Below are positions 33,982 through 42,278 of a stretch of DNA of 64,000 nucleotides, piece by piece. How positions within the stretch are numbered: the stretch's first letter is position 1; each line of letters begins with the position of its first letter. The notes beneath the pieces are model-generated. The model did no database searches. It saw only the letters and a program-made list of their open reading frames with translations, and was not told where the DNA came from. Made by a program: the position numbers and the translations under genes. This DNA comes from Tequatrovirus BCH953P2, in the sequence record OZ035785.1, one strand, 5' to 3'.

Positions 33982-34455
33982 TTATTTGAATGATTTAACG
34001 TACTGAATAGAACCTTTACTATTCACAAAGGCAATTTTACCATTTTTGTTATACATGGTAGCAGTACGCTGATAGCCATAAGTTTGTTTACCAGATTGAT
34101 AACCAACTAATGCAAAATTATCTTCACCCATTTTATTCTGTTTAGCGCGAATGCGTTCATGGCCATGTGCCATAAGAACCTTAGCATCACCAGTTGCAAT
34201 GGATCTACGAGTTTTTTCATCTTCAACTGTATTAACAAAGTCGTCAAATGAATCAAATTTAGCATGAGATTTATTATACAGTTTTCCATCTACTGCATAA
34301 TTATATCCCTGTACATCCATCTCAACTTCTGTACCATCATCCAATACAGCAGTGATTTTTTGACCTTTTTTAAATTTCAAAAGATCAGTAAAAGATTCAG
34401 CAATAATTTGAGAATTAATAGCTGCTTCAGTGATAAATTCTTGATATGTTTTCAT
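33982..34455 (-). CDS. Internal (head-packaged) protein with capsid-targeting N-terminus
   Basis: 157 aa beginning MKTYQEFITEA, the conserved T4 internal-protein targeting sequence ending in Glu-Ala. Confidence 0.65.
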   Translation of the reverse strand: MKTYQEFITEAAINSQIIAESFTDLLKFKKGQKITAVLDDGTEVEMDVQGYNYAVDGKLYNKSHAKFDSFDDFVNTVEDEKTRRSIATGDAKVLMAHGHERIRAKQNKMGEDNFALVGYQSGKQTYGYQRTATMYNKNGKIAFVNSKGSIQYVKSFK

Positions 34456-34464
34456 ATGTTTCCT

Positions 34465-34881
34465 TTAAATGTAAATATTTTTACCGTAATACTTATACCA
34501 ATGTGGTTTCATTAAAATTTTTTCATCAAGTCGTTGTTGACTCAATTTAATAGCTGATTTGCATGGATTATAATCATTTTTCCATTCTACTGGAATATCG
34601 CTGATGTCAGGAACTTCAGTATCTTTTATACTGAACCCTCGTTTTAAGCATTCCGTTATAATGTCCGATTGACGCTTTCGCAAAAATTCTAACTTATCGT
34701 AAAAGAAAGTAACATGACCAGAACCTAAAATAAATTTAGAAGATATTTTAAAATCTTTAACGCGCTTACCATTTGCCACATGCTTACGAACTATACCAAA
34801 AACACGTGGCAATTCACGATATTCTGCGATTAAATGTTGATCAGCAAGTTCAGATACTAAAGTCAAATTAATACGAGTCAT
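34465..34881 (-). CDS. denV: Endonuclease V (pyrimidine-dimer DNA glycosylase)
   Basis: 138 aa matching remembered T4 endo V ([28 protein letters not shown]). Confidence 0.9.
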
Positions 34882-34906
34882 TTTATCCCTCCAAGTAACT
34901 GTGAAT

Positions 34907-34936
34907 ATACTATCACAATTCTAGGAGAAAGTAAAC
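34907..34936 (-). promoter_or_regulatory. Early sigma70-type promoter upstream of denV
   Basis: Minus-strand GTTTAC-N18-TAGTAT about 25 nt upstream of the denV start. Confidence 0.5.
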
Positions 34937-34940
34937 AACT

Positions 34941-35435
34941 TTATAGATTTTTATACGCGTCCCAAGTGCCAGTTCTAAACGTTGCAATGACTCGTTTTGC
35001 GCGATTAGGTGTTTGATTATACCATCTACTTTTAGCTAAGTTAACTGCTGCTTCATCCCAGCGTTTTTGTTGAAGCATACGCAAAGAGTTAGTGAATCCA
35101 GCTACGCCAGTTTCTCCCATTTGGAAAACCATATTAATCAATGCACAGCGACGAACAGCATCAAGAGAATCATAAACTGGTTTTAATTTAGCATTTCTCA
35201 AAATTCCACGAACAGCAGCATCAACATCCTGGTTAAAGAGTTTTTCAGCCTCATCTTTTGTAATTACGCCATTGCAATTACGCCCAATAGCTTTATCTAA
35301 TTCAGATTTAGCAACACTTAATGATGGACTTTTAGTAAGCAAATGACCAATGCCAATAGTGTAATAGCCTTCTGTGTCTTTATAGATTTTAAGTCTAAGA
35401 CCTTCATCTATACGTAACATTTCAAATATATTCAT
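34941..35435 (-). CDS. e: Endolysin (T4-type lysozyme)
   Basis: 164 aa from [38 protein letters not shown]; differs from remembered T4 lysozyme at about three positions; late promoters 14-35 nt upstream. Confidence 0.95.
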
Positions 35436-35448
35436 AATACCTCCTAAG

Positions 35449-35470
35449 TATTTATAGAAGGTATTTATAA
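35449..35470 (-). promoter_or_regulatory. Tandem late promoters for lysozyme gene e
   Basis: Two plus-strand TATTTATA copies (35449-35456, 35463-35470) 14-35 nt upstream of the e start. Confidence 0.65.
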
Positions 35471-35914
35471 AATTAAAAAAAGGTTGTTCATTATTCGGTA
35501 AAGTGAAGGACCCATCACATATTGCCACTGAGTACGAGGAATAAGAGCAAAAGCATCCATCTCTGGAATCATAACACCATCTTTATTTTCAAAATAAGAC
35601 TCACAATAGCAATTTCTGAACATCTCATGCTCTACTGGAATCGCATAATAAAATAGCTGTAAGTCTTTATTACTAGAATATTTAAATACACCTAGGTCTT
35701 CTAGAAGGTCTGGATTATAATTGCTAAAACCGGTCTCTTCTAAACATTCTCTTCGTGCTGCATCTAGTGCACTTAAATCAGAATTTTCTACACGGCCCTT
35801 TGGAATATCCCAGCGATGTGCCATCATTCCAGGCTTACGAGAACCAGTAACCCGACCCATAAATAAATCTTTATCTTCTGTCATGAAGATAATACCAGCT
35901 GATAATGTTTTCAT
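35465..35914 (-). CDS. nudE: Nudix hydrolase NudE
   Basis: Nudix box [24 protein letters not shown]; start set at [10 protein letters not shown]. Confidence 0.8.
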
Positions 35915-36273
35915 TTTAATTTCCTGCAATCACTCACAAACTCTTTCATTGATTCATTTTCAATATAAGACATGTAGCTATTATATTCTTTTAATTGTAT
36001 TTTGTAATCCTTTTTTCTTTGCCAATTTATTTTAAAATTATCATAATGAAAATATAACATGGTACCAAAGAATGAAAATAATGAAATAATTTTAGTATAG
36101 TGAAGTTCACTCCAAACTTCTGTTATATTTACTGTGCCGTCGATGTTTAAAATAAGACAGTCAATTAACAATCCAAAAAGACTACCCGCAAGAGCTGCAG
36201 CCAACGCCACAGCAAAAATTAAAAATGACTCAGGAAGAGAATATTTGACTTTATTTAGTTTTGGCTTTTGCAT
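35911..36273 (-). CDS. Membrane protein, tandem paralogue 1
   Basis: 120 aa, two hydrophobic segments, C-terminus [12 protein letters not shown]. Confidence 0.45.
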   Translation of the reverse strand: MQKPKLNKVKYSLPESFLIFAVALAAALAGSLFGLLIDCLILNIDGTVNITEVWSELHYTKIISLFSFFGTMLYFHYDNFKINWQRKKDYKIQLKEYNSYMSYIENESMKEFVSDCRKLK

Positions 36274-36647
36274 CGTGATTCCTTAACAAATTTCATAATT
36301 TCATCAAATTCGTATGCAGCAAGTTTAAGCTGGTGTTCCTTTTTAATCTTTTTACACTGTGCTTTCCAATCACGTACGCGTTTACGATAATGTCTTCCTT
36401 GATACCAGTATCCTACCCAATTTACCGGTACTAATAAAAGTGGAACTACCAATGGAAGAATTAGCATTAACACAAGTATTTCGCCAGAATCAATATCAGT
36501 CATAACATCTAAAACACCTCCAATAATCAATAGAATTACAAATGATATAAGTATAACAGGACCTATTAATACATCGGTAGAAATTATCTGGTGCTTTGAT
36601 TCATACTTCAAAGGTTTACTTGGAAGGTATAGTGATGGTTTTGACAT
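36255..36647 (-). CDS. Membrane protein, tandem paralogue 2
   Basis: Start set at MSKPSLYL; two hydrophobic segments, C-terminus IMKFVKESRCKSQN. Confidence 0.45.
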   Translation of the reverse strand: MSKPSLYLPSKPLKYESKHQIISTDVLIGPVILISFVILLIIGGVLDVMTDIDSGEILVLMLILPLVVPLLLVPVNWVGYWYQGRHYRKRVRDWKAQCKKIKKEHQLKLAAYEFDEIMKFVKESRCKSQN

Positions 36648-40957: not shown

Positions 40958-40958
40958 G

Positions 40959-41031
40959 CTGGGAATAAAGGACTCGAACCTTTGCATCTAGCAGTCAAAG
41001 TGCTATGCCTTACCAACTTGGCTAATTCCCA
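40959..41031 (-). tRNA. tRNA-Gln (anticodon UUG)
   Basis: Reverse complement begins TGGGAATTAGCCAAGTTGGTAAGGCATAGCACTTTGACTGCTAG, agreeing with remembered T4 tRNA-Gln; CCA not encoded; 1 nt spacer to tRNA-Leu. Confidence 0.8.
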
Positions 41032-41128
41032 ATTATTAACAAAGGCTCTCAAACAAGAACCCTTGATGATAGAGGGTATTAATCAGTGCGGTATGAGTTA
41101 ATAATAACAAATAATTCTTAAAGCATAT

Positions 41129-41416
41129 TTACCATTTATGATGATACATACTTACGATGCATTCAAGACCTAAAGGATTCTTGAAAATATCATATTCAAG
41201 AGGACCTTTTTCTGTTTCAATAAAGAAATCAAAATTTACTGTATTAAATTTACGGTCTTCCTTTACTAATTTAACTTGAGAAGATGAACGGTCAATGTAA
41301 ACCTTTTCAACTTCAAAACATGTTAAAACGCCATAATCATCAATCAAGGCTTTAGCTGCGTCTTGATCATATTTATATCCATTTTCAATGGATGATACTT
41401 TAGCATAAAGAATCAT
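41129..41416 (-). CDS. Hypothetical protein
   Basis: 95 aa ORF downstream of the tRNA cluster. Confidence 0.4.
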   Translation of the reverse strand: MILYAKVSSIENGYKYDQDAAKALIDDYGVLTCFEVEKVYIDRSSSQVKLVKEDRKFNTVNFDFFIETEKGPLEYDIFKNPLGLECIVSMYHHKW

Positions 41417-41418
41417 TA

Positions 41419-41799
41419 TCAGCCTTCATCAACAATAGTATGAGTGTGGGCATTTACAATTTGCCACCAATCAAAGCGATTAGAACCATACATCGGTTTG
41501 TTTTCATTTTCTTTGATAATATCACGGAGTTCATCTTCGGTAGCGGCTTTCGCGATTAAATCAGCATATCCACCACGAGGATAATAATTATCACCTGCAA
41601 AAAGTAAAAAGTTTGGTTTAATATTATTAAACTCTTCAAGAGTAATAACTGTTCCACCAGGTTGAACAATCTCTACATAACTATATCCTAATTTTTGAGC
41701 AGCATCTACTGCTTCAAGCAGGGTATCATGAGCCCATCCAATTTGGCAATCTGGCTTTTCAGATGGATTAGCCTGATAATCCGCGTACACTTTATACAT
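41419..41799 (-). CDS. Hypothetical protein
   Basis: Start set at MYKVYADYQ with AAAGGTGAA upstream; ORF track gives a longer 41419..41838 version. Confidence 0.4.
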   Translation of the reverse strand: MYKVYADYQANPSEKPDCQIGWAHDTLLEAVDAAQKLGYSYVEIVQPGGTVITLEEFNNIKPNFLLFAGDNYYPRGGYADLIAKAATEDELRDIIKENENKPMYGSNRFDWWQIVNAHTHTIVDEG

Positions 41800-41800
41800 T

Positions 41801-41986
41801 CTATTCACCTTTAGAAATTTTATCCATAACGATAGCAATTAAACCAATTAAAAATGCTACTACAAGTGAAAAAACATTTTCTGCTGTAGTCAATAATCCG
41901 CATATAAATCCAACAAACATTGAAAAACTAAAAGCGGAAGCAGAAATTGCAATAGCAACATTTCGAATTAATTCACAACGTTTCAT
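41801..41986 (-). CDS. Small membrane protein
   Basis: 61 aa, hydrophobic (FSMFVGFICGLLTTAENVFSLVVAFLIGLIAIV); early-promoter-like motif at 42015-42044. Confidence 0.4.
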   Translation of the reverse strand: MKRCELIRNVAIAISASAFSFSMFVGFICGLLTTAENVFSLVVAFLIGLIAIVMDKISKGE

Positions 41987-42014
41987 TTTATTCTCCTCAG
42001 TAGTAGATAGGGTA

Positions 42015-42044
42015 ATAGTATCACTACCCTATCTAAAAGTAAAC
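42015..42044 (-). promoter_or_regulatory. Early sigma70-type promoter
   Basis: Minus-strand GTTTAC-N18-TACTAT just downstream of the ipI stop. Confidence 0.5.
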
Positions 42045-42278
42045 TTATTTTTTACGAAAAATTGATTTATTTTCTGCTGCCCATTTTTCAATAACTGCAG
42101 CCGGACCAGTAACAACAATTTTATCACCGTAATCTTCTGCGGCGAGTTGACCGAAATTATCTAATGCATCACGAAGAACTCCATGAGGCATTTCACCCAT
42201 TTTATCTTTCTTGCCAGTGTAAATAAACTCAACTTTTACATCAGAAGATTCAGCGATAAATTCTTTAAACGTTTTCAT
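42045..42278 (-). CDS. ipI: Internal protein I (head-packaged anti-restriction protein)
   Basis: 77 aa beginning MKTFKEFIAES (capsid-targeting consensus), positioned before 57B/57A as in T4; early promoter at 42309-42338. Confidence 0.6.
   Translation of the reverse strand: MKTFKEFIAESSDVKVEFIYTGKKDKMGEMPHGVLRDALDNFGQLAAEDYGDKIVVTGPAAVIEKWAAENKSIFRKK

Follow-up and report, generated by a model that had tools for sequence, protein, structure and literature searches.

We analysed a T4-like segment of 64,000 nucleotides (nt) from Tequatrovirus BCH953P2 (sequence record OZ035785.1), referred to here as the window, in which three small genes begin with an N-terminus resembling that of the internal proteins of bacteriophage T4. 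It is quite likely that all three encode T4-type internal proteins: P1, an Ip4/IpIV internal-protein precursor of 157 residues (33982..34455); P2, a candidate precursor of 157 residues belonging to phrog_2280 (38659..39132); and P3, an Ip6/IpVI precursor of 77 residues (42045..42278). An original prediction made from the sequence had located these open reading frames (ORFs) without stating a strand; all three are present and all lie on the minus strand. P2 is the sole new element among them, as the annotation of phrog_2280 lacks any reading of its N-terminus as a targeting sequence, and we find that this family is probably a further family of internal proteins.

A capsid-targeting N-terminus on three unrelated bodies

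The three proteins start with MKTYQEFITEA (P1), MKSYAQFLNEA (P2) and MKTFKEFIAES (P3), the first ten residues being encoded at nt 34426-34455, 39103-39132 and 42249-42278, respectively. In T4 IPIII the capsid-targeting sequence (CTS) consists of the first ten residues; residues 4 and 7 are the main determinants of targeting, and processing by gp21, the prohead protease, depends on residues 8 and 10 (PMC9026906). The corresponding targeting positions are Y4/F7 in P1 and P2 and F4/F7 in P3, and they are kept in all aligned family members. Positions 8-10 form a gp21-type [I/L]-x-E site followed by a small residue, and cleavage is predicted at ITE↓A in P1, LNE↓A in P2 and IAE↓S in P3. Judged by these motifs, what the three proteins have in common is the capsid-targeting sequence of T4 with its gp21 cleavage site, which agrees with the prohead-protease reading that had been proposed for it (PMC9026906, PMC3012670).

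Similar N-termini might also arise from the composition of AT-rich coding sequence or from mis-called starts, and a G+C content of ~35% does favour codons for Lys, Phe, Ile, Tyr and Asn. However, when 1471 candidate starts, each followed by at least 31 open codons, were scanned on both strands of the window, the pattern M-K-[ST]-[FY]-x-x-F-[IL]-x-E was matched by exactly three, namely P1, P2 and P3. The number expected by chance is 0.0007 (calculated analytically from amino-acid frequencies), and no match occurred in 40 composition-matched (Markov-1) random windows. Each of the three ORFs opens at the first in-frame start codon possible after a stop and has an AGGAAA Shine-Dalgarno sequence 5-8 nt upstream, and the same N-termini are found in hundreds of related genomes. 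The motif statistics and the conservation upstream of and at the N-termini in relatives refute a chance or mis-called origin, to which we give a negligible probability.

Beyond residue 10 the likeness ends, again as predicted. BLASTP found no match at E < 0.01 between any pair among P1, P2, P3 and T4 IPI, IPII and IPIII (a six-sequence database), and profile–profile comparison of the P2 family with the Ip4 family by hhalign aligned columns 1-10 and nothing further. The T-even internal proteins have been described as a diverse set with the CTS alone in common, a description credited to Repoila et al. 1994 (PMC3012670); as a shared CTS on unrelated bodies is thus already in reviews, the phenomenon observed here is real but long known.

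The resemblance to the T4 proteins is closest at the N-terminus. T4 IPII and IPIII start with MKTYQEFIAEA, which P1 matches at all but one of these 11 residues; T4 IPI starts with MKTFKEF, in common with P3. The [I/L]-x-E motif, small size and accessory status are common to the T4 internal proteins and to P1-P3, and the isoelectric points (pI) of mature P1 and P2 (9.1-9.6) compare with 9.6 for T4 IPII* and IPIII*. P3 is located at the ipI locus itself, and denV is the neighbour of P1 as it is of T4 ipII. Nevertheless, there are clear differences. No T4 internal protein shows detectable similarity in sequence to the mature parts of P1, P2 and P3; T4 carries ipII and ipIII between e and denV, whereas Ip4 here lies on the opposite side of denV; and the locus of P2 is empty in T4. 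Presence also varies among close relatives, since T4 lacks all three genes and BASEL phage Bas37 (KarlGJung, MZ501089) lacks P1.

By the route established for T4, the CTS of ~10 residues would dock each precursor on the scaffolding core of the assembling prohead, and gp21 would then cut after the Glu of [I/L]-x-E. The small mature protein would stay among the packaged DNA and enter the host with it, the bodies being in effect interchangeable cargo. Because it is injected with the DNA, such a protein would act ahead of any phage gene expression.

P2 and the rnaC–e.8 locus

P2 matches the phrog_2280 profile, labelled 'unknown function', from end to end (E 5e-60). Its homologues occur in 511 phage records from Tequatrovirus, Jiaodavirus (Klebsiella) and Tegunavirus (Yersinia), and both Ip4 and P2 are also found in Serratia and Salmonella phage records. 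As the Ip4 family is likewise represented in 470 phage records, including Klebsiella, Serratia, Salmonella and Raoultella phages, the two 157-residue proteins are not narrowly lineage-specific, and the earlier proposal is inaccurate on this point. All 40 sampled P2 records bear the label 'hypothetical' or one that is similarly uninformative; the single exception among the database names read is a UniRef entry for a distant homologue in Klebsiella phage KPKp, named 'Internal head protein'.

Within the P2 family the N-terminus reads MKSYAQFLNE, MKTYNEFLNE or MKSYAEFLTE, with MLEYSEFLKE in Tegunavirus and MLKFNEFLAE or MKFKEFLAE (one residue shorter, spacing unchanged) in Jiaodavirus; a neighbouring paralogue starts with MKTYAEFLTE or MLQYNEFLKE. 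CTS positions 4, 7, 8 and 10 remain invariant in four genera and in both paralogous sub-families, with overall identity down to ~40%, and positions 2, 3, 5, 6 and 9 vary. The LNE↓A site is duplicated at residue 15, and the mature protein is predicted to have 142-147 residues and a pI of about 9.5.

The AlphaFold2 model of P2 is all-helical (predicted local distance difference test, pLDDT, 76.8; predicted template modelling score, pTM, 0.47), with a three-helix N-terminal module (residues 18-71), a Lys/Pro/Ala-rich linker (72-87; KASGKPAPKADPKAAQEK) and a helical hairpin (88-154). Conservation of the N-terminal module extends to the homologues in Klebsiella and Yersinia phages, in which the C-terminal halves differ. 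Scans of P2 against Pfam, NCBIfam and PADLOC gave no significant match, a PDB sequence search gave nothing under E 0.1 and a Foldseek search of the model against the PDB gave nothing with E < 1. A HMMER search of mature P2 against 1.84 billion representatives returned ten matches, of which eight are T4-like phage proteins or fragments; the other two, which align an 'AAGSYSYK' repeat in large unrelated proteins, were dismissed as spurious. The profile search suggested in the original prediction assigned P1 and P3 to named families (below) and P2 to a family of 'unknown function'. Nothing on P1 or P2 emerged from literature searches for 'Ip4', for Tequatrovirus virion proteomes naming internal proteins or for the N-terminal sequences as literal strings, and the fPS-2 paper contains no proteome.

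The gene is laid out as a compact cassette in the order G+C-rich hairpin, TTTTTAGTATAAATA, 36 nt with the ribosome-binding site, ORF and second hairpin copy. The octamer TATAAATA, the T4 late-promoter consensus, stands 36 nt 5' of the start codon (39169..39176, minus strand; consensus match only). A terminator scan placed the upstream hairpin copy at 39179..39206 (minus strand), at the 3' end of the rnaC homologue, where it marks the left boundary of the cassette, and the downstream copy, the predicted P2 terminator, at 38624..38651 (minus strand). Both copies have the exact pattern AGCCCC(RR)CCGAAAGGTTGGGGCTTTTT, none being expected by chance, and they extend to a direct repeat of ~35 nt that brackets the ~520-bp cassette. 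P2 would accordingly be transcribed from a late promoter of its own within a hairpin-bracketed cassette between rnaC and e.8.

Comparison with relatives clarifies the status of this cassette. Bas37 and teqskov each have two exact hairpin copies, whereas T4 has one copy and no cassette. The two flanks of the cassette in the window each overlap one and the same 35-nt stretch of T4 (70825-70859, the end of rnaC with the single T4 hairpin), and T4 therefore resembles an unoccupied site. Set against T4, the cassette amounts to a clean indel of ~520 bp; P2 is thus accessory, and recombination between the repeats probably accounts for its gain or loss. This accessory status is as expected of polymorphic internal proteins. 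The hairpin and TATAAATA stand 5' of every P2 homologue examined, which comprise those of five Tequatrovirus relatives (stretches L001, L002, L004, L005 and L007) and of Jiaodavirus KP1; in the latter, a Klebsiella phage, the stem sequence differs and the architecture is equal.

The locus between rnaC and e.8 occurs in several states: empty in T4, with one CTS gene in this window, and with two in Bas37, PhAPEC2 and fHe-Yen9-01. In Bas37 the second CTS ORF, bas37_0243 (187 residues, start MKTYAEFLTEAAK; stretch L007, 8029-8592, minus strand), lies directly 3' of the P2 homologue bas37_0244. It belongs to a family of 187-189 residues that starts with MKTYAEFLTEAAK or MLQYNEFLKESLI, includes RB14ORF136 and is absent from this window. 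The family is represented in 165 records, adjoins the P2 homologue in many phages and was labelled 'hypothetical' in 25 of 25 records sampled. Its member in fHe-Yen9-01 was located at 1922-2491 (plus strand) of stretch L009, and in this phage the genes for gp154 (MLQYNEFLKE) and gp153 stand in tandem behind a single TATAAATA. The 187-residue neighbour matches the same phrog_2280 profile as P2. That the two are close paralogues was considered and rejected, as BLASTP aligns only 11 N-terminal residues, and any relationship is a distant one at best. We regard the rnaC–e.8 gap as a probable extra locus for internal-protein cassettes.

Evidence from particles comes from Yersinia phage fD1, whose g140 is 96% identical to P2. 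In purified virions examined with liquid chromatography–tandem mass spectrometry, g129 (Ip4), g140 (the P2 homologue) and g146 (an internal protein of the ipI locus) were scored as particle-associated at the strict threshold (PMC8309999, Table S3), g129 being listed as 'Head protein', PPAP (PMC8309999). Virion proteomics had been named as a check on the original prediction, and its outcome is mixed: the homologues of P1 and P2 are detected, but the same list also includes DenV, lysozyme, NudE and dNMP kinase (PMC8309999). The fD1 proteins g137 and g136, homologues of e.6 (37269-37862, minus strand) and e.5 (36616-37227, minus strand), were scored as particle-associated too; because the dataset is low in specificity, they are probably carry-over of abundant proteins.

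These data bear on a different view of P2, according to which it and its 187-residue paralogue are cytoplasmic late proteins that stay outside the capsid and carry the CTS-like N-terminus as a relic or as a 5' recombination linker for cassette exchange. The fD1 proteome, the only one to detect a P2 homologue, detects many non-structural proteins as well; the 40 sampled records all carry uninformative labels, and among the database names read a single one speaks of an internal head protein; and the HIDEN-SEQ preprint (below) gives no phenotype in its main text. However, a relic would decay, and yet the four CTS positions that matter for targeting and processing in T4 have stayed fixed throughout the family. 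P2 is also basic like the T4 internal proteins and has the anatomy of a late gene, and in T4 the ten CTS residues alone are enough to load foreign proteins into heads (PMC9026906). We therefore hold a cytoplasmic P2 to be improbable and favour its assignment to the internal proteins.

Several points nevertheless weigh against the assignment of all three genes to the T4-type internal proteins. The T4-type gp21 protease and gp22 scaffold are core genes carried by Tequatrovirus genomes, but by T4 gene order genes 21 and 22 are expected beyond the end of the window. For P1 and P2, packaging, cleavage and injection, together with any anti-defence role, are what we infer from their sequences and relatives. 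An internal LKE site at residue 110 of P2 would be expected to be cut if it were exposed. The octamer TATAAATA is not over-represented in the AT-rich window (11 found, 10.6 expected), and for this reason the late-promoter call for P2 is made on position and conservation only. Neither sequence nor Foldseek searches gave a homology or fold match pointing to a binding partner of P1 or P2. The particle-associated list of fD1 is unspecific, comprising 113-137 of 277 phage proteins and 672 host proteins (PMC8309999), and detection of P2 and Ip4 in it therefore proves expression more than encapsidation. Finally, a phenotype for bas37_0244, the homologue of P2, is absent from the main text of the preprint describing HIDEN-SEQ (10.1101/2025.11.20.689424).

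P1, P3 and the possible roles of the putatively injected proteins

P1 belongs to a family that is already annotated. It matches phrog_3155, 'internal virion protein' (E 6e-102), and Pfam DUF7412 (E 6e-96; 319 bits against a gathering cut-off of 27; residues 1-157 of 158 profile positions), and it is 99-100% identical to the Ip4/IpIV-annotated proteins of PP01 and JK1; the names Ip4, IpIV or internal head protein are in use in wV7, PP01, JK1 and SH7. In the family alignment M1, K2, F7, E10 and E20 are invariant. A further [ILM]-x-E site, ending at E20 (IIAE↓S), is likewise invariant in the family and recalls the 19-residue propeptide of T4 IPI. Mature P1 is accordingly predicted to have 137-147 residues, with a pI of about 9.2. 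Its structure model is mixed alpha/beta (pLDDT 76, pTM 0.71), and Foldseek found nothing in the PDB with E < 0.1. A match of P1 to a designed beta-propeller in the PDB (E 6e-4, 47 residues) was dismissed as too short and compositional.

The gene for P1 follows that for DenV, with the denV stop codon 9 nt ahead of the P1 start. The closest late-promoter-like sites able to drive e, denV and Ip4 are two TATAAATA octamers 5' of the lysozyme gene e (35449..35469, minus strand), and the three genes are presumably co-transcribed. In the window e and denV lie 59 nt apart (34456-34940 and 33828-33981 region), the ipII and ipIII genes that T4 has between them being absent. With Ip4 on the other side of denV here, the two T4 genes missing and Bas37 devoid of any, the neighbourhood of denV is therefore polymorphic both for the internal protein and for the side on which it lies.

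P3 is the sole gene at the ipI locus in this window, between trna.4 and 57B. Its family, represented in 245 records, corresponds to phrog_8111, 'internal virion protein', and is annotated as ipVI or Ip6 in PST, VR7 and JK1. The mature protein has 67 residues and a pI of 6.5. A PDB sequence search with P3 gave no match, the structure of T4 IPI* included. A sigma-70-like promoter directly 5' of the gene (42309..42337, minus strand; TTTACA, 17-nt spacer, TACTAT and an upstream TG) is a consensus match only, and sigma-70-like sites are no more frequent in the P3 region than in shuffled sequences.

The closest characterized relative of P3 is the product of the 77-codon ORF bas37_0260. The two proteins are equal in length and identical at 73 of 77 residues (95%, E 4e-56), and their genes have the same flanking genes and lie upstream of trna.4. 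Of the 67 mature positions only two are different (S11T and S12A; 97% identity), and within the CTS positions 4 and 5 read F,K in P3 but Y,Q in Bas37_0260. The ipI locus of Bas37 also holds a second internal-protein gene, bas37_0261 (phrog_3499), which this window lacks. From sequence and gene order, P3 is an orthologue of Bas37_0260, which has only the N-terminal packaging signal in common with IPI-III and whose deletion makes the phage specifically sensitive to McrBC (HIDEN-SEQ preprint, 10.1101/2025.11.20.689424). P3 thus probably neutralizes the host type IV restriction enzyme McrBC. The original prediction had proposed anti-defence roles for the two 157-residue proteins and left aside P3, the one with an experimentally assigned target through Bas37_0260.

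What P1 and P2 do in the host is a separate matter. They might be packaged and yet, instead of inhibiting defence, serve mainly as DNA-associated core or charge-neutralizing proteins, or take part in assembling the head or in ejection. The basic character of both mature proteins fits this suggestion, as does the Lys/Pro/Ala-rich linker that joins the two helical modules of P2. Neither protein resembles known anti-defence proteins in sequence, Foldseek or PADLOC searches. Ip4, furthermore, is unusually well conserved for a protein engaged in an arms race, its body having >60 invariant positions and a mean column identity of 68% across phages with hosts from E. coli to Klebsiella and Serratia. 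On the other hand, the absence of P1 and P2 from T4, and of Ip4 also from Bas37, argues against a required structural role. To our knowledge, internal proteins with assigned roles are only four, IPI, IpII, IPIII and Bas37_0260, and every T-even internal protein for which a function has been found counters a defence. IPI blocks GmrS/GmrD (PMC3012670); IpII blocks the fused GmrSD/BrxU, and IPIII is needed on strain ECOR17. We consider a mainly structural function of P1 and P2 rather unlikely, although less so than a cytoplasmic P2. By analogy with the characterized proteins, a first-response anti-defence role would be the most likely one for P2.

A broader proposal joins these observations, which we advance tentatively and at somewhat less than even confidence. 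The interval between rnaC and e.8 would be a third, unrecognized internal-protein locus of the Tevenvirinae that holds none to two self-contained phrog_2280 cassettes, each with its late promoter (P2, and the 187-residue paralogue in Bas37, RB14, PhAPEC2 and fHe-Yen9-01). The cassettes would come and go through recombination at their repeated terminator hairpins, and the injected products would disarm defences for which no phage inhibitor is known. The N-terminal module of P2 would then serve as a common handle and the C-terminal halves, which would be exchangeable, as the specificity element.

Genomic setting and significance

The 8.5-kb region around the three ORFs has matches in 1180 phage records and is collinear with complete Tequatrovirus genomes, REP2, teqskov and UFV-AREG1 among them, at 95-98% identity. 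On the minus strand the gene order is as in T4: 1, 57A, 57B, the ipI locus, trna.4-trna.2, the tRNA cluster, the small RNAs, e.8-e.3, nudE, e, denV and vs.8. Homologues of rnaC and rnaD, the stable small RNAs of T4, lie at 39174-39526 (minus strand) and are 97% identical to T4 70825-71178; they are covered by no Rfam family, and an Rfam scan of 33-43 kb found nothing besides tRNAs.

The tRNA cluster (40070-41031, minus strand) contains ten genes, compared with eight in T4, for tRNAs specific for Arg, Asn, Tyr, 'Met' (CAU), Thr, Ser, Pro, Gly, Leu and Gln. The CAU tRNA (40459-40533) carries the annotation tRNA-Ile (ATA) in BASEL relatives and is therefore probably a tRNA-Ile modified with lysidine. 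An ORF of 184 residues (39494-40048, minus strand), located between the rnaD homologue and tRNA-Arg, has a MUG113/T5orf172 (GIY-YIG-like) domain (Pfam E 3e-9; phrog_5032), its 3' end adjoining conserved small-RNA sequence. T4 has no gene at this site, and the ORF is probably a homing-endonuclease-like mobile insertion.

The class of CTS-bearing proteins, its logic, the Ip4 and Ip6 annotations and the published target of Ip6 were already known; what is added is the probable place of phrog_2280 among the internal-protein families and of the rnaC–e.8 gap among their loci. The conceptual gain is small, because the idea of one CTS on unrelated cargoes has belonged to textbook knowledge since 1994-1996. 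If phrog_2280 does bear a CTS, however, two widespread candidates (511 and 165 records) would join the short list of internal proteins, and the annotation of hundreds of genomes would be corrected. Injected internal proteins help to decide whether therapeutic T4-like phages plate on a given clinical strain.

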